Positions 8,229-58,469 of a stretch of DNA of 64,000 nt are shown here, one piece after another (position 1 is the stretch's first letter; each line of letters begins with the position of its first letter). The stretch lies in the sequence record KM606994, one strand, 5' to 3'. Source of the DNA: Escherichia phage RB3. The notes beneath the pieces are model-generated. The model was given only the letters and a program-made list of their open reading frames with translations. It did not search any database and was not told the DNA's origin. The position numbers and the translations under genes were made by a program.

Positions 8229-9403
8229 TGAGTATGTTGCAACGCCCCGGATATCCAAATCTCAGCGTTAAATTATTTGATAGCTACGACGCTTGGAGTA
8301 ATAATAGATTTGTTGAATTAGCTGCTACTATTACCACATTAACTATGCGGGATTCTCTTTATGGACGAAATGAAGGAATGCTGCAGTTTTATGATTCTAA
8401 AAACATCCATACAAAAATGGATGGAAATGAAATAATTCAGATTTCTGTAGCTAATGCAAATGATATTAATAATGTTAAAACACGAATTTATGGATGTAAG
8501 CATTTTTCCGTGTCAGTAGATTCAAAAGGTGATAACATCATTGCTATTGAATTGGGAACTATTCATTCTATAGAAAATCTTAAATTTGGTAGACCATTTT
8601 TCCCTGATGCAGGTGAATCTATAAAAGAAATGCTTGGTGTCATTTATCAGGATCGCACATTATTAACTCCAGCAATAAATGCTATAAATGCTTATGTTCC
8701 TGATATTCCATGGACTAGCACATTTGAAAACTATTTGTCATATGTAAGAGAAGTTGCTCTAGCTGTAGGAAGCGACAAATTTGTATTTGTGTGGCAAGAC
8801 ATCATGGGAGTTAACATGATGGACTATGATATGATGATAAATCAAGAACCATATCCAATGATTGTCGGTGAGCCATCTTTAATAGGTCAATTCATCCAAG
8901 AATTAAAATATCCATTAGCATATGATTTTGTTTGGTTGACTAAATCGAATCCTCACAAACGTGACCCAATGAAAAATGCTACTATCTATGCTCATTCATT
9001 TTTAGATTCTTCATTGCCAATGATTACTACAGGAAAGGGCGAAAACTCTATTGTAGTGTCAAGGTCAGGTGCTTATTCTGAAATGACTTATAGGAATGGA
9101 TATGAAGAAGCTATTCGTCTTCAAACTATGGCACAATATGACGGCTATGCTAAATGTTCTACTGTCGGTAATTTTAACTTGACTCCTGGCGTTAAAATTA
9201 TTTTTAATGATAGTAAAAACCAATTTAAAACAGAATTTTACGTTGATGAAGTTATCCATGAATTATCCAATAATAATTCAGTAACTCATCTATATATGTT
9301 CACTAATGCAACGAAACTGGAAACAATAGACCCAGTTAAGGTTAAAAATGAATTTAAATCTGATACTACCACTGAAGAAAGTAGTTCTTCCAATAAGCAA
9401 TAA
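8228..9403 (+). CDS. 27: baseplate hub protein gp27
   Basis: 391 aa, equal to T4 gp27. Confidence 0.9.
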
Positions 9404-9881
9404 AGAAGTTTCTATTCCTAAAATGGGTCTTAAACATTATAACATTTTAAAAGATGTTAAAGGTCCTGATGAAAATTTAAAACTTCTTATTGATTCTATT
9501 TGTCCGAATTTATCACCGGCAGAAGTTGATTTCGTTTCTATTCATTTATTGGAATTTAATGGAAAGATTAAATCTCGTAAAGAAATAGATGGCTATACTT
9601 ATGACATTAATGATGTTTATGTGTGCCAAAGATTAGAGTTTCAATACCAAGGAAATACATTTTATTTTAGACCTCCTGGAAAATTTGAACAATTTTTAAC
9701 AGTGAGCGATATGTTATCTAAATGCTTACTTAAGGTCAATGATGAAGTTAAAGAAATTAATTTTCTTGAGATGCCAGCATTCGTTTTAAAATGGGCAAAT
9801 GATATTTTTACAACTTTAGCAATTCCTGGCCCTAATGGTCCAATAACTGGAATTGGCAATATTATTGGATTATTTGAATGA
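9348..9881 (+). CDS. 28: baseplate hub distal subunit gp28
   Basis: 177 aa; ATG start overlapping the 3' end of 27. Confidence 0.8.
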
Positions 9882-11650
9882 AAAAGCCACAAGAAATGCA
9901 AACGATGCGTAGAAAAGTTATTTCAGATAATAAACCAACACAGGAAGCGGCTAAATCCGCTTCTAACACTTTATCTGGACTTAATGATATATCTACGAAA
10001 TTGGATGATGCTCAAGCTGCTTCTGAATTAATAGCTCAAACTGTCGAAGAAAAATCGAATGAAATAGTTGGAGCAATTGGTAACGTAGAAAGCGCAGTGA
10101 GTGATACTACTGCTGGTTCTGAGTTAATTGCTGAAACTGTCGAAATTGGCAATAATATTAATAAAGAAATCGGTGAATCGCTCGGAAGCAAATTAGATAA
10201 ATTAACAAGTTTACTAGAGCAAAAAATCCAGACAGCTGGAATTCAACAGACTGGAACTAGTTTAGCCACTGTTGAAAGCGCTATTCCTGTTAAAGTCGTT
10301 GAGGATGATACTGCTGAATCTGTGGGTCCTTTATTACCAGCTCCTGAAGCAGTTAATAATGATCCTGACGCTGATTTTTTCCCTACCCCTCAGCCAGTTG
10401 AACCCAAACAAGAATCACCAGAAGAAAAACAGAAAAAAGAAGCATTTAACTTAAAATTATCTCAAGCTTTAGATAAATTAACAAAGACTGTTGATTTTGG
10501 ATTTAAGAAATCCATTTCAATTAGTGATAAAATATCAAGCATGTTATTTAAGTACACCATCAGTGCTGCTATTGAAGCCGCTAAAATGACTGCAATGATA
10601 TTGGCTGTTGTTGTTGGAATAGACCTGTTGATGGTTCATTTTAAATACTGGTCAGATAAATTTTCAAAAGCCTGGGATTTATTTAATACTGACTTTACTA
10701 AATTCTCTAGCGAAACCGGAACATGGGGTCCTTTATTACAGAGCATCTTTGATTCTATTGATAAAATTAAACAACTTTGGGAAGCGGGAGATTGGGGTGG
10801 ATTGACAGCAGCTATTGTTGAAGGACTCGGAAGTGTTCTTTTTAATTTAGGTGAACTTATTCAATTAGGTATGGCTAAATTATCTGCAGCAATTCTTCGA
10901 GTCATTCCTGGTATGAAGGATACTGCTGATGAAGTAGAAGGAAGAGCATTAGAAAATTTCCAAAATTCTACTGGAGCATCTCTCAATAAAGAAGACCAAG
11001 AAAAAGTTGCAAATTATCAAGATAAACGAATGAACGGAGACCTTGGTCCGATAGCAAAAGGATTAGATAAAATTGCTAATTGGAAAACTCGTGCATCTAA
11101 TTGGATTCGCGGGGTTGATAATAAAGAAGCACTAACTACCGACGAAGAACGTGCAGCAGAAGAAGAAAAATTAAAGCAACTTTCACCGGAAGAAAGAAAA
11201 AATGCTTTAATGAAGGCTAATGAAGCTCGTGCTGCGATGATTCGTTTTGAAAAATATGCCGATTCAGCTGATATGAGTAAAGACTCAACAGTTAAATCAG
11301 TTGAATCTGCCTATGAAGACCTTAAAAAACGGATGGATGACCCGGATTTAAATAATTCACCGGCAGTTAAAAAAGAACTTGCTGCTAGATTTTCTAAAAT
11401 TGATGCTACTTATCAAGAGCTCAAGAAAAATCAGCCTAATGCCAAACCTGAAACTTCTGCTAAATCGCCAGAAGCGAAACAAGTCCAGGTTATTGAAAAG
11501 AACAAAGCACAGCAAGCTCCTGTTCAACAAGCATCTCCTTCAATCAATAATACTAATAATGTTATTAAGAAAAATACTGTCGTTCATAATATGACACCTG
11601 TTACGAGTACAACTGCTCCTGGTGTATTTGGCGCGACTGGAGTTAATTAA
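9878..11650 (+). CDS. 29: baseplate hub / tail length determinator gp29
   Basis: 590 aa; coiled-coil and hydrophobic central region. Confidence 0.85.
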   Translation: MKKPQEMQTMRRKVISDNKPTQEAAKSASNTLSGLNDISTKLDDAQAASELIAQTVEEKSNEIVGAIGNVESAVSDTTAGSELIAETVEIGNNINKEIGESLGSKLDKLTSLLEQKIQTAGIQQTGTSLATVESAIPVKVVEDDTAESVGPLLPAPEAVNNDPDADFFPTPQPVEPKQESPEEKQKKEAFNLKLSQALDKLTKTVDFGFKKSISISDKISSMLFKYTISAAIEAAKMTAMILAVVVGIDLLMVHFKYWSDKFSKAWDLFNTDFTKFSSETGTWGPLLQSIFDSIDKIKQLWEAGDWGGLTAAIVEGLGSVLFNLGELIQLGMAKLSAAILRVIPGMKDTADEVEGRALENFQNSTGASLNKEDQEKVANYQDKRMNGDLGPIAKGLDKIANWKTRASNWIRGVDNKEALTTDEERAAEEEKLKQLSPEERKNALMKANEARAAMIRFEKYADSADMSKDSTVKSVESAYEDLKKRMDDPDLNNSPAVKKELAARFSKIDATYQELKKNQPNAKPETSAKSPEAKQVQVIEKNKAQQAPVQQASPSINNTNNVIKKNTVVHNMTPVTSTTAPGVFGATGVN

Positions 11651-11658
11651 GGAATAAT

Positions 11659-12753
11659 ATGGCAATTGTTAAAGAAATAACTGCTGATTTAATTAAAAAG
11701 TCCGGTGAGAAAATTTCAGCCGGACAGAGCACTAAATCAGAAGTAGTAACTAAAACATACACTGCCCAGTTTCCAACTGGGCGTGCTAGTGGTAATGACA
11801 CTACAGGGGACTTCCAGGTAACAGATCTATATAAGAATGGATTATTATTTACTGCATACAATATGTCATCTAGGGATTCTGGAAGTCTTAGATCGATGAG
11901 ATCTAACTACTCTTCTTCATCTTCGAGTATTTTAAGTACAGCCAGAAACACTATTAGTAGTACAGTATCAAAACTATCAAATGGATTAATATCAAATAAT
12001 AATTCAGGAACAATAAGTAAAGCTCCTGTCGCAAACATTCTTTTACCGAGATCTAAATCTGATGTTGATACATCATCACATAGATTTAATGATGTTCAAG
12101 AAAGCCTTATCAGTAGAGGCGGAGGTACTGCTACTGGTGTGCTAAGTAATATTGCTTCAACCGCAGTATTTGGGGCACTGGAAAGTATAACACAAGGTAT
12201 AATGGCTGATAATAATGAGCAGATTTATACGACAGCCAGAAGTATGTACGGTGGCGCTGAAAATAGAACTAAAGTGTTTACATGGGATTTGACTCCACGT
12301 TCCACAGAAGATTTAATGGCTATTATTAATATCTATCAATATTTTAACTATTTTTCTTATGGTGAAACGGGTAAATCTCAATATGCTGCTGAAATAAAGG
12401 GATATTTAGATGATTGGTATCGTTCTACGTTAATTGAACCTTTATCTCCGGAAGACGCAGCTAAAAATAAAACACTATTTGAGAAAATGACATCGAGTTT
12501 AACTAACGTTCTAGTAGTTTCAAACCCGACAATTTGGATGGTGAAAAACTTTGGTGCAACATCTAAGTTTGATGGAAAAACTGAAATATTTGGTCCATGC
12601 CAAATTCAAAATATCAGATTTGATAAAACACCTAATGGTAACTTTAACGGATTAGCTATTGCTCCAAACCTCCCTAGTACATTTACTCTCGAGATTACTA
12701 TGAGAGAAATTATCACGTTAAACCGTGCTTCTTTATATGCGGGGACTTTTTAA
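11659..12753 (+). CDS. 48: baseplate tail-tube junction protein gp48
   Basis: 364 aa, equal to T4 gp48. Confidence 0.85.
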   Translation: MAIVKEITADLIKKSGEKISAGQSTKSEVVTKTYTAQFPTGRASGNDTTGDFQVTDLYKNGLLFTAYNMSSRDSGSLRSMRSNYSSSSSSILSTARNTISSTVSKLSNGLISNNNSGTISKAPVANILLPRSKSDVDTSSHRFNDVQESLISRGGGTATGVLSNIASTAVFGALESITQGIMADNNEQIYTTARSMYGGAENRTKVFTWDLTPRSTEDLMAIINIYQYFNYFSYGETGKSQYAAEIKGYLDDWYRSTLIEPLSPEDAAKNKTLFEKMTSSLTNVLVVSNPTIWMVKNFGATSKFDGKTEIFGPCQIQNIRFDKTPNGNFNGLAIAPNLPSTFTLEITMREIITLNRASLYAGTF

Positions 12754-31694: not shown

Positions 31695-32785
31695 CGTTAT
31701 GTTCGATTGAGCTCGCTAATTCTCAACCCGTTCTCTTATGAACTGCTACATATTACTATGCAGACCAGACTATATCACAATCCCAGAGGGATTCTCCCCA
31801 TTTCGAGTCGCTTGACCCTACGTCCGAAGACTAGTCGTTGAACCTTGCTTTGCAATTGTCGCCGTGCCATCGTTTATATGTTGATGGTGATAAATCTTTC
31901 TTATCACAATATGGACAATTCAATTGAATTCTATTTGGATTTAATTTACATCTGTCATTATGTTTTAGATAAAATCCAGGACCTTTACCAATGTGACCGC
32001 AGAAATCACATGTGATTTCTTTTTGTGCAGGATGGGTCCCGTTCTTAACCATTTCTAATGTTTTTGCTGATGTTCTTTTCTTATGGTCTTCTGACAAGAA
32101 ATGATGTGAACCGTCATTTACCCGTTTTGATTGAGTTTCTGACTGCATTTTACCACCGCAAAATACATGAGTACCTTCTTTTATAGCTGCAATATTGCGT
32201 TCTTTAACTTTTGCAATATGCTCAGCTTGTTGAAAATTATGTATACCTAATGCAACTCTATTTAAATTAGATTTACGCTGTATTTCACCGTCTAAAAGAT
32301 GAAATGTACCATTTTCTATCTTAGATTTAATAGAGGCAATATTTTTAGCTCGTACTTCAGGGATATTAAAAATCTGGATTTCTCTAGATTTTGCGGCTTT
32401 AGAAGCTAATTCAGAAATTTCTTCAGGAGAATATTTCATTCTAAGCTTTATAGCATGACAAGCCTGGTAATCTTTTTGAGCTAAATGTATATCATAATGT
32501 TCCTGTATAGAAAGGCACATCAAATTATCTAAATCATTATTTTCACGGTTACCGTCTTTATGATGGATTTCGTCTGTTCTTCCATCAGAATCTTTAGGTA
32601 TAGGTCCGTTAGCATCTATCCAAATTTTTCTATAGTTCAATTGTGCATCCTCTTAAAAGTATAATCATATTTATATTATACTAATTAAAGGTGCAAGCAA
32701 AACCTTGGCTGCTAGTTTTCCTATAAAGGACTTTCCAGCAATTAAAGGAGTTTTCGATAAACGTTACCGTTTAAAGGCGCATTTT
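31695..32785 (-). mobile_element. group I self-splicing intron in nrdB (1091 nt) carrying I-TevIII
   Basis: Exon 1 ends in U, intron ends in G; joining exons creates codon UGU (Cys) giving ...FYVSFACTFNFHKNMEIMEGNAKI..., alignable with E. coli NrdB ...FYVSFACSFAF..ELMEGNAKI. Confidence 0.7.
31831..32640 (-). CDS. I-TevIII: HNH homing endonuclease I-TevIII, full length, inside the nrdB intron
   Basis: 269 aa; HNH motif HHKDGNRENNDLDNL...QEHYDIH and C-terminal Cys4 zinc finger; TTG start with GAGGA SD. Confidence 0.8.
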   Translation of the reverse strand: MNYRKIWIDANGPIPKDSDGRTDEIHHKDGNRENNDLDNLMCLSIQEHYDIHLAQKDYQACHAIKLRMKYSPEEISELASKAAKSREIQIFNIPEVRAKNIASIKSKIENGTFHLLDGEIQRKSNLNRVALGIHNFQQAEHIAKVKERNIAAIKEGTHVFCGGKMQSETQSKRVNDGSHHFLSEDHKKRTSAKTLEMVKNGTHPAQKEITCDFCGHIGKGPGFYLKHNDRCKLNPNRIQLNCPYCDKKDLSPSTYKRWHGDNCKARFND

Positions 32786-33461
32786 ACGCAAAAGATACAT
32801 AAAAACGAATAGCTTCTAAGGCATTAATAACGTGCAAACAGAGGTAAAGAGATTTCATTAAAGCACGTTTAGCTTCGGCTTCTTGCTTAATAGCTCGGTT
32901 TAAACGAAAGTCGGCATCAGGAGATTCTTTAGCTAGTTCTACAAATTCTTTAGCATTTTCCCATTCACGGGTTTTAATCAGAACATCATCATAATAGCGA
33001 CCGATAGATTCAGCGCGTTTCATAATAGCTTCATCTAATACAATCTCATCAAACACCTTTGACGGATCAGTATAAAGATTTCGCATGATATGTGTATATG
33101 AACGACTGTGAATAGTTTCACTAAAAGTCCATGTAGCAACCCATGTATCAAGACTTGGGTCTGAAATTAATGACATAAGTACAGCAGATGGCGCACGACC
33201 CTGAATGCTATCCAAAAGTGATTGATACTTCAGATTATTAGTAAAAATATTTTGCTGATACTGAGGAAGCTTATTAAACTGTGCAGCATCCATCATTAAG
33301 TTTACTTCTTCCGGGCGCCAGAAGAATGACAATTGCTTTTCGGTCAAATCTTCAAAAACTTTATGGCGTTGAATATCATAACGCGCAATACCAAGACCTG
33401 AACCAAAAAACATGGGTTCTTTTAAAACATCAACTGGATTTGTATTAAAAACTGTAGACAT
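32786..33461 (-). CDS. nrdB: ribonucleotide reductase small subunit NrdB, exon 1
   Basis: Starts at ATG (Met13 of track ORF) overlapping mobE stop as TAATG; ends ...AIRFYVSFA plus U of a split Cys codon. Confidence 0.75.
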
Positions 33462-34192
33462 TAATTTTTCCTCTTTAAAATTCTGCCGCGTTTCCAACCT
33501 GGCGGTATAATATCATCTTTACCTATAAGCGTGCATTCACTTCCATTATTAATCCATTTCTTACCGCGGATTCCTTTATAATCTCTTGGTTGTATTTTAT
33601 CAAACTTTGCATCAAGTTGATATGACCATCTAAATCCATAGGCATATTGAAATTTACCCTCAGCACAATATTTGATATTTGACCCGTTTCCATTAACTGA
33701 CCTGGACGCTGCCGCAATAGAGTGAAAGGTTTCTATGAAATCCCCATCTAATGAGAATTTATGTATTTCGATAGATGGGCATGCATACCTATTCACGTTT
33801 GATACATGTTGTTTAGTTTCGTTTTTATGATGCTTGCCTAACATTCCTCTAGGATGAGGATTATTTTTCCAATATTTCTTAAAGAAATCAGAATTAGCTT
33901 TAGCAAATAATTTTCTGTGCAAGCTATACAATCTGTTATTAATTCTATTACCAGCTTTATCTGTTGCCATTAACGTTAACGCAGAGGCAAGCCCAAAATG
34001 GCCTTCATTTATCTTACATAGTAATAGATGCGCTATAAAATGTTCTCTAGCTGTTAATTCAACTAAATTTTCTTTATCATCAGAACCTCCCATGCATTTA
34101 GGGACTATATGATGTGTCTCTTTATATTCAGATAAAGGTTCCCGAGCCTGAGCTCGGGAAATTAGGTCATTATAGATTTTTTGATAATTCAT
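33461..34192 (-). CDS. mobE: free-standing HNH homing endonuclease (MobE-like)
   Basis: 243 aa; HNH motif HHIVPKCMGGSDDKENLVELTAREHFIAH; between nrdA and nrdB. Confidence 0.7.
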   Translation of the reverse strand: MNYQKIYNDLISRAQAREPLSEYKETHHIVPKCMGGSDDKENLVELTAREHFIAHLLLCKINEGHFGLASALTLMATDKAGNRINNRLYSLHRKLFAKANSDFFKKYWKNNPHPRGMLGKHHKNETKQHVSNVNRYACPSIEIHKFSLDGDFIETFHSIAAASRSVNGNGSNIKYCAEGKFQYAYGFRWSYQLDAKFDKIQPRDYKGIRGKKWINNGSECTLIGKDDIIPPGWKRGRILKRKN

Positions 34193-36456
34193 TACAATTT
34201 ACACGCTGCACAATCGTCGGCTTTAGGAGTTTCTATTTCATAATCATCAGTACCAGAACCATCACGGGTATTATGATAATAGAAATTTTTAATGCCATAA
34301 TACCATCCGTATAGCATGTCATCAATCATTATTGACATTGGAACCTTTCCTTTTGGAAAAATCTGCGGGTCATAATATGTATTCGCTGAAGCTGATTGAC
34401 ATACCCATTTCAGCATAATAGCTACTTGCGTAAGATAAGGTTTATTACCTTTCTTAGCTAATTTCCATGTATAATCATAGAGGTCTATGTTATGCTCAAT
34501 ATTGGGCACGACCTGATTAAAGGAGCCCTCTTTTGATTCTTTAACAGAGACTGGTCCACGTGGAGGCTCGATACCGTTTGTACTGTTAGAAACTTGGGAA
34601 GATGACTCACATGGCATAAGTGCTGATAATGTGCTATTACGGATGCCAAAGAGCTTAAGGTCTTCCCGCAGCGCCGACCAGTCACAAACGTATTTTGGAG
34701 CTGCGATTTGGTCAATCTTTTTATTGTACCAGTCGATAGGTAATTCGCCTCGAGACCAACGAGTGTCTGAATAATATTCACAAGGTCCTTTTTCTTTGGC
34801 GAGCTTAATGGATGCTTTAATGAGTCCATACTGTAATCTCTCAAATAGTTCATGTGTTAAATCGTTAGCATCTTCATAAGAAGCAAAGTTACTTGCCAGC
34901 CAAGCTGCATAGTTGGTAACACCTACACCGAGGTTACGACGCTTTTTAGCTTTTTCTGCTTCAGGAACTGGATATCCTTGGTAATCCAAAAGATTATCAA
35001 GAGCACGAACTTGAACTTCTGCCAATTCATTAATTTTATCTTGGTCTTGCCAGTCAAAATTATCTAGTACGAATGCAGATAACGTGCACAAGCCAATTTC
35101 AGCATCAGGACTATTCACATCATTTGTTGGAATAGCAATTTCACAGCACAAGTTACTCTGACGAATAGGTGCCTTTTCACGAATAAACGGAGTATAGTTA
35201 TTCGTATTATCAATGAACTGTACATAAATCCTTGCTGTTCCTGAACGTTCAGTCATGAGCAATTCAAATAGTTCACGGGCTTTAATACGCTTTTTACGAA
35301 TATTAGGGTCTTTTTCTGCTGCTTCGTATAATTCACGGAAACGGTCTTGGTCTTTAAAATAAGAATAATAAAGCTCTCCACCCATTTCATGCGGACTGAA
35401 CAAAGTAATGTAATCGTTCTTTCCGAATCGTTCCATCATCAAATCATTCAGTTGAACACCATAATCCATATGACGAATGCGGTTTTCTTCTACGCCTTTG
35501 TTATTTTTCAAAACGAGAAGATTTTCAACTTCCAAATGCCAAATAGGATAATAAGCAGTAGCAGCGCCGCCACGAATTCCACCCTGTGAACATGATTTAA
35601 CTGCAGTCTGAAAATGTTTCCAAAAAGGAATAACACCAGTATGGCGTACTTCACCCATGCCAATCTTAGAACCTTCGGCACGAATCATACCAACGTTAAT
35701 ACCAATTCCAGCGCGTTTAGAGATATATTCTACAATCGAAGCGGAAGCCTTATTGATAGACTTCAATGAATCACCTGCCTCAATAACAACGCATGAACTA
35801 AACTGCCGAGTTGGAGTACGGCAACCAGCCATAATAGGAGTTGGTAATGAAATCTGTCGAGTAGATACTGCTTCATAAAAACGAATAACGTGTTTTAGTC
35901 TATCAACAGGTTCATCTTGATGCAATGCCATTCCAATAGTCATAAATGCAAACTGCGGAGTTTCATAAATTTGACCAGTGGTTTTATCTTTAACTAGATA
36001 TTTTTCTTTTAATTGCATCGCTCCGGAATAAGTAAATTCCATATCCCGCTCGTGCTTAATTTTTGATTCTAAAAATGTAATTTCTTCTGCAGAATATTTT
36101 GACAACAATTCAGGGTCGTATTTACCTTCATTTACACAGTAAGAAATATGGTCAATAAATGAACGTGGTTCATATTGTCCGTAAACATGCTTACGAAGAG
36201 CAAACATTAAACAGCGCGCAGCCACGTATTGATAATCAGGCTCTTCAACTGAAATAGAATTCGCAGCAGCCTTAATTACAATGGTTTGAATGTCATCAGT
36301 GGTCATTCCATCACGGAGATATGATTTAATATTTTCATATAATTCATAAGGATCTACAGATGTTCCTTCAGCTGCCCAAGATAAAACTTTAATAATTTTT
36401 TGCGGGTCAAAGCTCTGAGAAACACCACTACTTTTGATAACATTAATTAATTGCAT
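34192..36456 (-). CDS. nrdA: ribonucleotide reductase large subunit NrdA
   Basis: 754 aa, equal to T4 NrdA; class Ia RNR signatures. Confidence 0.9.
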   Translation of the reverse strand: MQLINVIKSSGVSQSFDPQKIIKVLSWAAEGTSVDPYELYENIKSYLRDGMTTDDIQTIVIKAAANSISVEEPDYQYVAARCLMFALRKHVYGQYEPRSFIDHISYCVNEGKYDPELLSKYSAEEITFLESKIKHERDMEFTYSGAMQLKEKYLVKDKTTGQIYETPQFAFMTIGMALHQDEPVDRLKHVIRFYEAVSTRQISLPTPIMAGCRTPTRQFSSCVVIEAGDSLKSINKASASIVEYISKRAGIGINVGMIRAEGSKIGMGEVRHTGVIPFWKHFQTAVKSCSQGGIRGGAATAYYPIWHLEVENLLVLKNNKGVEENRIRHMDYGVQLNDLMMERFGKNDYITLFSPHEMGGELYYSYFKDQDRFRELYEAAEKDPNIRKKRIKARELFELLMTERSGTARIYVQFIDNTNNYTPFIREKAPIRQSNLCCEIAIPTNDVNSPDAEIGLCTLSAFVLDNFDWQDQDKINELAEVQVRALDNLLDYQGYPVPEAEKAKKRRNLGVGVTNYAAWLASNFASYEDANDLTHELFERLQYGLIKASIKLAKEKGPCEYYSDTRWSRGELPIDWYNKKIDQIAAPKYVCDWSALREDLKLFGIRNSTLSALMPCESSSQVSNSTNGIEPPRGPVSVKESKEGSFNQVVPNIEHNIDLYDYTWKLAKKGNKPYLTQVAIMLKWVCQSASANTYYDPQIFPKGKVPMSIMIDDMLYGWYYGIKNFYYHNTRDGSGTDDYEIETPKADDCAACKL

Positions 36457-36773
36457 AAGTCCTCAACTTGAAAATCGTCTTTAAACAATCGGTTAACTAT
36501 ATGAGCTATTATATCACCATGACACGGCTTTGGTTTACATGTGCATCCTAGCCTCATTCCACGTAAAGGCTCTAAATGTGCTTTAGTTATTTCTCCGGAT
36601 TTAATTCGACGTATAAAATCTTTTTTGAATAATTCAATGGCAGCCTCCCGGCTGCCAGCATCTTTACCGACGTAATTTCCCCAAAATGTACCGCGGTGAA
36701 TATTAACATCAAAGTCGGATTTATATTTATTCACTACCTGGCATAGACGGCCCGCGCGGTGATAATTCGTCAT
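36447..36773 (-). CDS. DUF4326-like small protein
   Basis: 108 aa; WGN...[21 protein letters not shown] resembles the DUF4326 signature as I recall it. Confidence 0.45.
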
Positions 36774-37002
36774 ATTGTTTTTCCGTTAAAACAGTAATAT
36801 CATAGTAACAATCTGAAGAAGTTTTAACTGTAGAAATTTTATTATCAAAATACTCACGAGTCATTTTATGAGTATAATATTTTTTGCCATAAATGATAAT
36901 AGGCTGATTTGGTCCTGGAACTTCTAACTCGCTTGGATTAGGAAGTGTAAAAAGAACTACACCAGAAGTATCTTTAAATCGTAAAATCATATATCCTCGC
37001 AA
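36727..37002 (-). CDS. hypothetical protein
   Basis: ORF track 91 aa. Confidence 0.45.
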
Positions 37003-37013
37003 TTAAATTAAAA

Positions 37014-37325
37014 TTATACCGCCATTTTTCCTTTCAAGACACCGTGGGACTGATAATCTTTGAGAACGAAATCTTTAGGCCTGAGTTTAAGAATGTATTC
37101 CAATTGTTCTTTAGTAGAAAGATAGCGGAATTTATAAGGCAATCCGCCTATTACCAGTTCACAAAGCTCTTTAGGTTCACGACGCAAAATTTCTTTACAT
37201 TGTTCTACGTGATTCATATAGATATGAGTATTACCGCCAGAAAATATCAAATCTCCAGGAATAAGATTACACATCTTAGCTACAATATGAACTAACGTAG
37301 CATATGATGCAATATTAAATGGTAG
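37014..37325 (-). CDS. td: thymidylate synthase, exon 2
   Basis: Continuation LPFNIASYATLVH... after the intron-terminal G at 37326; total 286 aa as in T4. Confidence 0.9.
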   Translation of the reverse strand, partial: LPFNIASYATLVHIVAKMCNLIPGDLIFSGGNTHIYMNHVEQCKEILRREPKELCELVIGGLPYKFRYLSTKEQLEYILKLRPKDFVLKDYQSHGVLKGKMAV

Positions 37326-38341
37326 CATTATGTTCAGATAAGGTCGTTAATCTTACCCCGGAATTATATCCAGCTGCATGTCACCATGCAGATCAGACTA
37401 TATCTCCAACTTGTTAAAGCAAGTTGTCTATCGTTTCGAGTCACTTGACCCTACTCCCCAAAGGGATAGTCGTTAGGCATTTATGTAGAACCAATTCCAT
37501 TTATCAGATTTTACACGATAAGTAACTAATCCAGACGAAATTTTAAAATGTCTAGCTGCATCTGCTGCACAATCAAAAATAACCCCATCACATGAAATCT
37601 TTTTAATATTACTAGGCTTTTTACCTTTCATCTTTTCTGATATTTTAGATTTAGTTATGTCTGAATGCTTATGATTAAAGAATGAATTATTTTCACCTGA
37701 ACGATTTCTGCATTTACTACAAGTATAAGCAGAAGTTTGTATGCGAACACCGCACTTACAAAACTTATGGGTTTCTGGATTCCAACGCCCGTTTTTACTT
37801 CCGGGTTTACTGTAAAGAGCTTTCCGACCATCAGGTCCAAGTTTAAGCATCTTAGCTTTAACAGTTTCAGAACGTTTCTTAATAATTTCTTCTTTTAATG
37901 GATGCGTAGAACATGTATCACCAAACGTTGCATCAGCAATATTGTATCCATTAATTTTAGAATTAAGCTCTTTAATCCAAAAATTTTCTCGTTCAATAAT
38001 CAAATCTTTCTCATATGGAATTTCTTCCAAAATAGAACATTCAAACACATTACCATGTTTGTTAAAAGACCTCTGAAGTTTTATAGAAGAATGGCATCCT
38101 TTTTCTAAATCTTTAAAATGCCTCTTCCATCTCTTTTCAAAATCTTTAGCACTTCCTACATATACTTTATTGTTTAAAGTATTTTTAATCTGATAAATTC
38201 CGCTTTTCATAAATACCTCTTTAAATATAGAAGTATTTATTAAAGGGCAGTCCTACAATTTAGCACGGGATTGTCTACTAGAGAGGTTCCCCGTTTAGAT
38301 AGATTACAAGTATAAGTCACCTTATACTCAGGCCTCAATTA
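37326..38341 (-). mobile_element. group I self-splicing intron in td (1016 nt) carrying I-TevI
   Basis: 5' end UAAUUGAGGCCUGAGUAUAAGGUGACUUAUACUUG recalled from the T4 td intron; intron ends ...UAAUG before exon 2; length 1016 nt as in T4. Confidence 0.85.
37473..38210 (-). CDS. I-TevI: GIY-YIG homing endonuclease I-TevI, inside the td intron
   Basis: 245 aa; MKSGIYQIKN...KVYVGSAKDFEKRWKRH. Confidence 0.9.
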   Translation of the reverse strand: MKSGIYQIKNTLNNKVYVGSAKDFEKRWKRHFKDLEKGCHSSIKLQRSFNKHGNVFECSILEEIPYEKDLIIERENFWIKELNSKINGYNIADATFGDTCSTHPLKEEIIKKRSETVKAKMLKLGPDGRKALYSKPGSKNGRWNPETHKFCKCGVRIQTSAYTCSKCRNRSGENNSFFNHKHSDITKSKISEKMKGKKPSNIKKISCDGVIFDCAADAARHFKISSGLVTYRVKSDKWNWFYINA

Positions 38342-38890
38342 ACCCAAGAAAACATCTACTGATCGTTGATACCACTGCAAATCCAAATAGCCATTACGCA
38401 CATTAAACTGATAGAACATATGACAAGGCGGTAATGCCATATATTTAAGTTCAGCTGGATTCCACGCAGAAACAATTTGTCGCCTATCATTCGGCAGTTT
38501 TTTAATACGATCAATAACTTCTACAATTTGGTCTACACCGCCAAAATCACGCCATTGTTTTCCATAAATTGGACCAAGTTCACCGCTATGGTATCCTAAA
38601 TCTTTTGCTTGATTTTCGTAATTTTCATCCCAGACTGTTTTGCCTTGGATTAACGAATCATGCTGAATTAATCGTAAATCATTTACGTTAGTACTTCCTG
38701 ATAAGAACCAAAGTAGCTCAGCAATGCAAGCTTTCCAAGCGAGCTTTTTAGTTGTTACTGCAGGAAAACCTTTACTTAAATCCCAGCGTAATTTAGTACC
38801 GAACAAAGCAATTGTTCCTGTGCCCGTTCGGTCATCGGTTTCATAGCCATTTTCAAAAATGTCTTTAATTAAATCTTGGTATTGTTTCAT
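38342..38890 (-). CDS. td: thymidylate synthase, exon 1
   Basis: 183 codons ending ...VDVFLG; active-site LPPCH; followed by intron start UAAUUGAGGCCUGAGUAUAAGGUG. Confidence 0.9.
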
Positions 38891-38934: not shown

Positions 38935-40131
<1,197 letters not shown>

Positions 40132-57497: not shown

Positions 57498-57823
57498 TTA
57501 AACCATCCTTTAATACGTTGCCACAAAGTTTTCTGTTGAGCTTTGTTAACACCAATTGAGTGAATAACTGGTTGAGATTCCTGGAATTCTTTATAATCAG
57601 CAAGGTAAATTTCGTAAGCTGCATTTGTAAATGAACTTATCGCTGCCATAAAATTATTGCGAATACCTACTGGAGCATCTTTACTTTCACGAATAATCAT
57701 GTATTTACCAGTCTTAATCTTTACGATAGTTCCAAGATAAGCTCCATGATACCAGATGTCCCAACCCTCTTGAGTAGGTTCTGCACAACGACGAAGTTCA
57801 TTAACAATTTCTAACTTGTTCAT
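57494..57823 (-). CDS. hypothetical protein
   Basis: ORF track 109 aa. Confidence 0.5.
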
Positions 57824-57833
57824 TATTTATTCC

Positions 57834-58469
57834 TCACAGTTCAGATGCTACAGCGATTACTGCTTCAATGTTTTCTGCCGAGCGTTTAATGTCAAGATAC
57901 ACATTACCGTTTTTAGCGATTTTACATGACATTCCGATGTCAGTAAATTTCTGAATATGATGTTCCATCATTTTGTATCCAAAAATTCGCATATTTCCAT
58001 TGTTGTTAATTTCAAAATTGCGAATTCCGTGAGTGCGTTTTTCTAAAATAGCGAGATAATTACTACGATAAGTTTCAACCTTTTTAAGAACAAATCCATT
58101 TTCATCTAAAAGTTTTAACATGAAGTCTTTATCTTCTTTCATATCAGAAGTAATCTCGCGAGCTTTACGAGTTGCTCGTTTTTTCAGCAGTTCCGGAGCA
58201 TTTTCCTGTGCATATAAAGTTGCTGCATTTGAAATAATATCCTGAGCTTCACCAGTAATGATTAATCCATCACCAGATTTCTCCACCAGGCCTTTTTTAA
58301 TCAATACCCCAATATTACTATTAACTACTGCGTTACCTAAATCTGGATGCACCTCACGAACTTCTGCAGCTGTAATGAAATCTTTCTTAGCAATAGTAAT
58401 TAAAATCGCAGCAGTTTTTTCATTCAGAACATCGTTAGAAGCTTTGATGATGTAAGTTACTTTAGACAT
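57834..58469 (-). CDS. motA: middle transcription activator MotA
   Basis: 211 aa; early promoter upstream. Confidence 0.9.
   Translation of the reverse strand: MSKVTYIIKASNDVLNEKTAAILITIAKKDFITAAEVREVHPDLGNAVVNSNIGVLIKKGLVEKSGDGLIITGEAQDIISNAATLYAQENAPELLKKRATRKAREITSDMKEDKDFMLKLLDENGFVLKKVETYRSNYLAILEKRTHGIRNFEINNNGNMRIFGYKMMEHHIQKFTDIGMSCKIAKNGNVYLDIKRSAENIEAVIAVASEL

Follow-up and report, generated by a model that had tools for sequence, protein, structure and literature searches.

Escherichia phage RB3 carries a small open reading frame (ORF) next to nrdA, and we analyzed it within a 64,000-nucleotide stretch of the phage genome (sequence record KM606994), referred to here as the window. 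An earlier reading of the letters alone, which we call the original prediction, had described a 108-aa ORF with a WGN sequence and a Cys/His motif, and this ORF call was exact. It had also placed the ORF downstream of nrdA; since the two genes share the minus strand, transcription passes the ORF first, and its position is directly upstream (5′) of nrdA. Over the 1.4 kb surrounding the ORF, the DNA is 100% identical to that of phages RB5, RB6, RB7, RB9, and RB10 and 95 to 99% identical to that of hundreds of T4-like phages. Relative to a genome of the RB5/RB6 type, the window covers the last 64 kb, and its position 1 falls at RB5 position 104395. The RB5 annotation lists the ORF as RB5_226 (“hypothetical protein, nrdA.1”) and gives the gene order frd, an ORF, td with its I-TevI intron, nrdA.2, nrdA.1, nrdA, mobE, and nrdB. 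The protein encoded in the RB3 window is 96% identical to T4 NrdA.1.

We confirmed the family assignment by profile searches. NrdA.1 matched the Pfam family DUF4326 (PF14216) with 77.5 bits, against a cutoff of 25, and an E value of 1.3e-21, over profile positions 2 to 81 of 82. This nearly full-length match bears out the DUF4326 identity that had been proposed from the motif, and PHROG 464, a group of unknown function, agrees with it (3e-49). The NCBIfam and PADLOC models had no match to NrdA.1 at an E value of ≤1. The ORF is the T-even gene nrdA.1, a genuine member of DUF4326 that was already annotated and named.

Because nrdA.1 overlaps both of its neighbors, and the first 10 residues of the protein are poorly modeled (block predicted local distance difference test [pLDDT] score of 63), we also weighed whether it could be a spurious ORF or a remnant in the spacer between td and nrdA. 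We give this reading next to no credence, as it is refuted by the strong profile match, by the spread of homologues through 1,965 phage records, by a confident predicted fold, and by purifying selection. The ratio of nonsynonymous to synonymous substitution (dN/dS) is 0.09 to 0.22 against T4-like orthologues at 49 to 80% identity, a comparison in which dS is saturated.

DUF4326 is widespread. When 1.84 billion cluster representatives were searched with a profile, 5,131 clusters matched at an E value of ≤1e-3 and 457 at ≤1e-10. The homologues in phage records were found by tblastn among 50,697 records, with hosts ranging from Escherichia to Bacillus and Rhizobium. A fold search against viral models returned DUF4326 proteins only, from phages, haloarchaeal viruses, and giant viruses, and copies are present in bacterial and archaeal genomes as well. 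Most viral copies (67 of 79) consist of DUF4326 standing alone, as in NrdA.1.

The coordinates of nrdA.1, of its conserved segments, and of the surrounding features are listed in Table 1. We take the ATG at position 36773 as the start of nrdA.1 because the first in-frame alternative, V14, already lies within the first conserved strand. The first 47 nt of the gene overlap the 3′ end of nrdA.2, and its stop codon lies 10 nt within nrdA. The start codon and Shine-Dalgarno sequence of nrdA are both contained in the 3′ end of nrdA.1, the latter forming codons E104 and D105. This arrangement of start, stop, and Shine-Dalgarno sequence implies translational coupling, and the encoded Shine-Dalgarno sequence accounts for the retention of an (I/V)-E-D-(L/I) tail in the T4-like homologues. 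A scan for promoters and terminators around nrdA.1 found none above shuffled expectation. nrdA.1 would be transcribed with frd, td, nrdA.2, and nrdA and translationally coupled to nrdA; from the gene arrangement and established T4 biology, we infer that NrdA.1 is made together with the enzymes of deoxynucleoside triphosphate (dNTP) synthesis.

Table 1. Positions of nrdA.1, its conserved segments, and other features in the window
Feature	Position	Strand	Basis or remark
nrdA.1 coding sequence, standalone DUF4326 domain, 108 aa	36447..36773	minus	ORF call, Pfam, RB5 annotation
Cys/His loop codons, C77-T-C79-K-P81-K-P-C84-H85-G86-D87, between strand 74-77 and helix 85-96	36513..36545	minus	Proposed active or metal site
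Second conserved patch, codons for residues 16-33, with D22…R27…G32-N33 at and after strand 2	36675..36728	minus	Conservation counts
nrdA.1 stop codon (TAA)	36447..36449	minus	
nrdA start codon	36454..36456	minus	Read from sequence
nrdA Shine-Dalgarno sequence (GAGGA)	36460..36464	minus	Read from sequence
nrdA, class Ia ribonucleotide reductase large subunit	34192..36456	minus	Directly downstream of nrdA.1 in the transcript
nrdA.2 (DUF5496)	36727..36990	minus	Directly upstream of nrdA.1; Pfam PF17600, E=2.2e-59, and RB5 annotation
td (thymidylate synthase)	37014..38890	minus	Split by a group I intron
td exon ORFs	about 38339..38890 and 37014..37328		
I-TevI homing endonuclease ORF	37473..38210		In the td intron
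Small extra ORF	38935..39294	minus	RB5_230, hypothetical protein, between frd and td
mobE, homing-endonuclease gene	33461..34192	minus	Between nrdA and nrdB (region 32784..34192)
Terminator-like hairpin	34139..34160	minus	9-bp stem, 6 GC pairs
Marginal minimal-SLOG match, 51-aa frame	57774..57926	plus	E about 0.003-0.008

Two further observations concern the distal side of nrdA. A strong terminator-like hairpin lies just past the nrdA stop codon, inside the first codons of mobE, and might attenuate read-through or mask translation of mobE. Beyond mobE, nrdB is interrupted in the RB5 annotation by an intron encoding I-TevIII.

We determined which residues define the family from 315 aligned DUF4326 domains of phage, other viral, and cellular origin, counting nongap residues. 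The DUF4326 domain spans residues 12 to 90 of NrdA.1, with WGN at residues 31 to 33 and the Cys/His-rich motif at residues 75 to 89. Within this motif, conservation is nearly absolute at C77 (312/312), C79 (311/312), P81 (312/313), C84 (311/314), and H85 (312/314). Outside it, N33 (311/313) and R27 (306/310) are conserved to a similar degree, and G32, N15, D22, R42, G86, and D87 are kept in about 85 to 97% of the domains. NrdA.1 retains all of the family-invariant pattern N…D…R…GN(P)…R…L-G-C-x-C-x-P-x-x-C-H-G-D except the proline at position 34, which is present in about 90% of the family and is a tyrosine in NrdA.1 and the T-even group. The T-even subgroup thus differs from the rest of DUF4326 in having Y34 in place of the near-universal proline of the WGNP motif, and also in a 10-residue N-terminal extension and in a C-terminal tail that overlaps, and is constrained by, the ribosome-binding site of nrdA. 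An additional cysteine, C11, is conserved within T4-like phages only.

Structure prediction, which had been suggested as a check on the original prediction, gave a confident AlphaFold2 model (pLDDT, 90.2; predicted template modeling score, 0.82) when the alignment held 139 sequences and included relatives at 35 to 57% identity. This model superseded one built from 23 sequences of T4-like homologues only, for which pLDDT was 66. The predicted elements are a strand at residues 12 to 15, a short strand at 23 and 24, helices at 42 to 59 and 64 to 70, a strand at 74 to 77, and helices at 85 to 96 and 103 to 107. NrdA.1 is therefore predicted to be a small Rossmann-like alpha/beta unit, in the order strand-strand-helix-helix-strand-loop-helix. 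In this model, N15, D22, R27, N33, R42, C77, C79, C84, H85, and D87 would all be positioned at the C-terminal ends of strands or the N termini of helices, the classical location of the active site in Rossmann-like folds. Sequence and profile searches of the PDB with DUF4326 returned noise only, with no solved relative, and a Foldseek search of the PDB with the model found nothing at an E value below 1.9.

Sequence comparison links DUF4326 to DUF488 (PF04343 and PF22751; the E. coli YeaO family), which is likewise uncharacterized. In a Pfam scan of the 139 alignment members at a permissive threshold, 35 matched PF22751 (DUF488-N3a; best E value, 0.002) and 2 matched PF04343. The DUF4326 consensus matched DUF488-N3a with an E value of 0.007, residues 31 to 89 being colinear with profile positions 56 to 117 of 118. 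We also built a DUF488 alignment from 37 bacterial neighbors of DUF4326 genes and compared it with the diverse DUF4326 alignment by hhalign, which gave a modest signal (P=5.2e-4 over 57 columns) and paired LGC-x-C-x-P-x-x-C-H-G-D with LLC-S-E-x-x-P-x-x-C-H-R-R. In this pairing, C77, P81, C84, and H85 are common to both families, and C79 falls beside the Glu of the DUF488 C-S-E, offset by a one-residue gap. The likeness lies in a colinear C-terminal half (helix, helix, strand ending in Cys, Pro-bearing loop, and Cys-His at the start of a helix), with C-x-E-x-x-P-x-x-C-H-R in DUF488 where DUF4326 has C-x-C-x-P-x-x-C-H-G-D; the N-terminal halves gave no alignment.

Further likenesses come from the predicted structure or were seen by eye. 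In the C-terminal domain of RapZ (PDB structures 5O5Q and 5O5S), FDVRFLPNPHW and AIGCTGGKHRS resemble the DV…R…GNP and LGC…H segments of DUF4326. The predicted end of strand 74-77 at C77 and start of helix 85-96 at H85 recall the cysteine phosphatase and rhodanese superfamily (PTP, DUSP, PTEN, Cdc25, and rhodanese). We propose that DUF4326 belongs in a group with RapZ-C and DUF488, distantly like cysteine phosphatases and rhodaneses; this independently reproduces a grouping already published from computational work by the Aravind laboratory. NADAR (YbiA-like) proteins differ, as their motifs and N-glycosidase active site are not present in NrdA.1 and the similarity is not significant.

DUF4326 also occurs joined to other domains. 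It is fused to NADAR in five proteins and to SLOG domains of the YAcAr or mSLOG types in at least eight, and further fusions join it to TIR, to a weak HD match, to a STAS-like domain, or to additional DUF4326 domains in tandem repeats. Polymerases are among the partners as well: in one IMG/VR contig (L047:7419-9713), a family A DNA polymerase has DUF4326 inserted between its 3′-5′ exonuclease and polymerase domains, and in another contig (L042:7992-9485), as well as in protein P0129, DUF4326 is joined to the N terminus of a T7-like RNA polymerase. Most bacterial copies, at about 200 aa, are fusions of SLOG with DUF4326. They belong to a conserved three-gene operon with the order DuOB (dual OB fold)-DUF488-(mSLOG-DUF4326), which is present in many Gammaproteobacteria and in other bacteria (loci L095 to L174, e.g., L097:4381-6312). 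DUF488 lies directly upstream in 37 of the 80 bacterial loci, and DuOB does so in 29. In several loci, HEPN, GmrSD, or restriction genes are found within two genes of this operon, which suggests that it sits in a defense or mobile-element context. Published work describes the SLOG domains of Thoeris ThsA as binding cyclic ADP-ribose isomers, and giant-virus homologues of the anti-Avs protein ORF83 carry a C-terminal DUF4326.

The standalone viral copies are surrounded, within two genes, by early genes of a generic kind, namely those for Rad50-like proteins, RNA ligase 1, primase, 5′-3′ exonuclease, thymidylate synthases, RecA, dUTPase, dCMP deaminase, and DNA methylases. DUF488 and DuOB each occurred near viral copies in three loci. 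We also considered nrdA.2 as an obligate partner of DUF4326 and rejected it, since its homologues were present in only 2 of 80 viral loci; the nrdA.2 family appears to be restricted to T-even-like phages. Among the gene products of RB5 are two ADP-ribosyltransferases, ModA and ModB, and a Nudix protein, NudE. Elsewhere in the RB3 window, a marginal match to a minimal-SLOG hidden Markov model (Table 1) is probably noise.

The overlap of nrdA.1 with the start of nrdA in T-even phages raises the question of a link to ribonucleotide reduction, and reductase adjacency does recur. A DUF4326 gene directly follows nrdB in Slopekvirus, and the jumbo phages UB and RaK2 have one flanked by nrdD and nrdG. 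The copy in Aeromonas phage LAh_9 neighbors a thioredoxin-like gene, with two reductase genes 3 kb away. In L028, a viral contig of 22 kb from outside the T4-like group, a standalone DUF4326 gene lies directly upstream of an NrdA-like ORF (8320-11991; 1,223 aa) that probably contains an intein. NrdA.1 could accordingly be a thiol or metal redox accessory of ribonucleotide reduction, in which the three invariant cysteines and the histidine, as a redox-active disulfide cascade or a 3Cys-1His metal or Fe-S center, would reduce phage reductases, maintain their cofactor, or regulate them. The recurrence of the adjacency in varied arrangements and with different reductase classes favors this reading, and there is precedent in the thioredoxin-coupled arsenate reductases, which have the related low-molecular-weight phosphatase fold and use a three-cysteine relay. 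We nevertheless regard it as improbable. Outside the close T4-like group, a reductase gene lay within 8 kb in only 5 of 66 viral loci, about chance level, and the T4-like cases are largely one ancestral early-gene module. The common bacterial operons of DuOB, DUF488, and SLOG-DUF4326 contain no reductase gene. The fusion partners include NADAR, SLOG, TIR, and polymerases, but never reductase or thioredoxin domains, and DUF488 and RapZ-C lack the full cysteine set.

Based on the viral count and the reductase-free bacterial operons, we rejected a family-wide linkage to the reductase and treat the link as a lineage-limited, minority hypothesis. In its broader form, which we consider a long shot, NrdA.1 would serve dNTP synthesis in phages as a so far unrecognized cysteine-based accessory or quality-control factor rather than take part in an NAD or ADP-ribose conflict. 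It might, for example, pass on reducing equivalents or clear a phosphorylated ribonucleotide that is aberrant or inhibitory, and its repeated insertion across two unrelated reductase classes would then be functional.

These results bear on a further suggestion of the original prediction, that the position of the gene in a nucleotide-metabolism cluster hints at a nucleotide- or NAD-related activity. The activity itself fits the NADAR, SLOG, TIR, and HD fusions and agrees with published computational predictions (PMC7824862, PMC9503650). The argument from the gene cluster fared less well, being weak across the family as a whole.

Combining conservation, predicted structure, and fusions, we tentatively propose, at somewhat short of an even chance, that NrdA.1 is a small cysteine-dependent enzyme that removes or transfers a ribose-attached phosphate. 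The C77-x-C79-x-P-x-x-C84-H85-G-D loop, together with R27, N33, and R42, would form a pocket for a phosphate on ribose, and a cysteine thiolate would remove or transfer that phosphate. The preferred substrate would be a free molecule of nucleotide origin (a derivative of ADP-ribose, a nucleotide immune signal, or a nucleotide by-product, for instance); we favor this type of substrate because of the SLOG, NADAR, TIR, and HD fusions and the analogy to RapZ-C. Alternatively, the substrate would be a phosphorylated DNA or RNA end, as favored by DuOB, the polymerase fusions, and the RNA-repair neighbors. That NrdA.1 is catalytic at all, which residue would be its nucleophile, what its substrate may be, and whether it would have any counterdefense role are points we infer from this combined picture. 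The 2023 article by Burroughs and Aravind in NAR Genom Bioinform reportedly agrees with this model.

Several observations weigh against this enzymatic proposal. The structural similarities of DUF4326 are all subthreshold, and hhalign comparison with the single RapZ C-terminal domain sequence was not significant for either the DUF4326 or the DUF488 profile. The C-x5-R phosphate-binding loop is not present: in C77-T-C-K-P-K-P-C-H85, neither C77 nor C79 is followed by an Arg at +6. The loop is also two residues longer than a C-x5-R loop and contains an invariant proline, making it a poor fit to the classical anion cradle. The neighbors of standalone copies in diverse phages are generic genes of replication, recombination, and nucleotide metabolism, and not NAD genes. 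In 164 of the 168 kb of RB5, small home-made hidden Markov models of limited sensitivity detected no DUF488, DuOB, or NADAR and no convincing SLOG; the same 164 kb holds only one copy of DUF4326. Since no partner domains were detected there and nrdA.2 is not a conserved partner, NrdA.1 would act as a standalone domain. The searchable literature mentioning DUF4326 contains no experimental study of any family member, in keeping with the earlier remark that the family has no established function, and literature under the name nrdA.1 consists only of unrelated genome papers.

Finally, three invariant cysteines and a histidine within nine residues also resemble a metal site, which counts against the proposed enzyme and leads to another explanation. 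NrdA.1 could be a noncatalytic module stabilized by a structural zinc in the Cys/His loop. Its role would be to bind, either as a sponge or sensor for a ligand derived from nucleotides or by attaching to a nucleic acid or a partner protein. The invariance of the CxC…CH cluster across the 315 domains, the very small size of the protein (core of about 85 residues), and the occurrence of Glu at one of the Cys positions in DUF488, a swap common among metal ligands, are consistent with such a module, and phage sponges for immune nucleotides are well precedented. We consider it unlikely, however, because seven more near-invariant polar residues at classical active-site positions (N15, D22, R27, N33, R42, D87, and G86) go beyond the needs of a zinc site, and the adjacent C84 and H85 would be awkward as coligands of one ion. 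Repeated fusion to the ligand-binding SLOG domain likewise suggests that DUF4326 supplies an activity other than binding. The remaining probability we leave to chemistry not yet imagined for NrdA.1.

The gene, its family assignment, and the functional hypothesis are already in public annotation and the computational literature and are thus not a discovery of this work. DUF4326 occurs in about 4% of sequenced phage genomes, as well as in giant viruses, archaeal viruses, and a conserved bacterial operon. T4 is the most tractable system in which to study it: the phage has a single standalone copy that is easy to knock out, and its nucleotide and ADP-ribosylation biology is known. Should the cysteine-dependent enzyme model be true, NrdA.1 would bring a reaction new to nucleotide or ADP-ribose metabolism in phages, and perhaps a new counterdefense activity as well.

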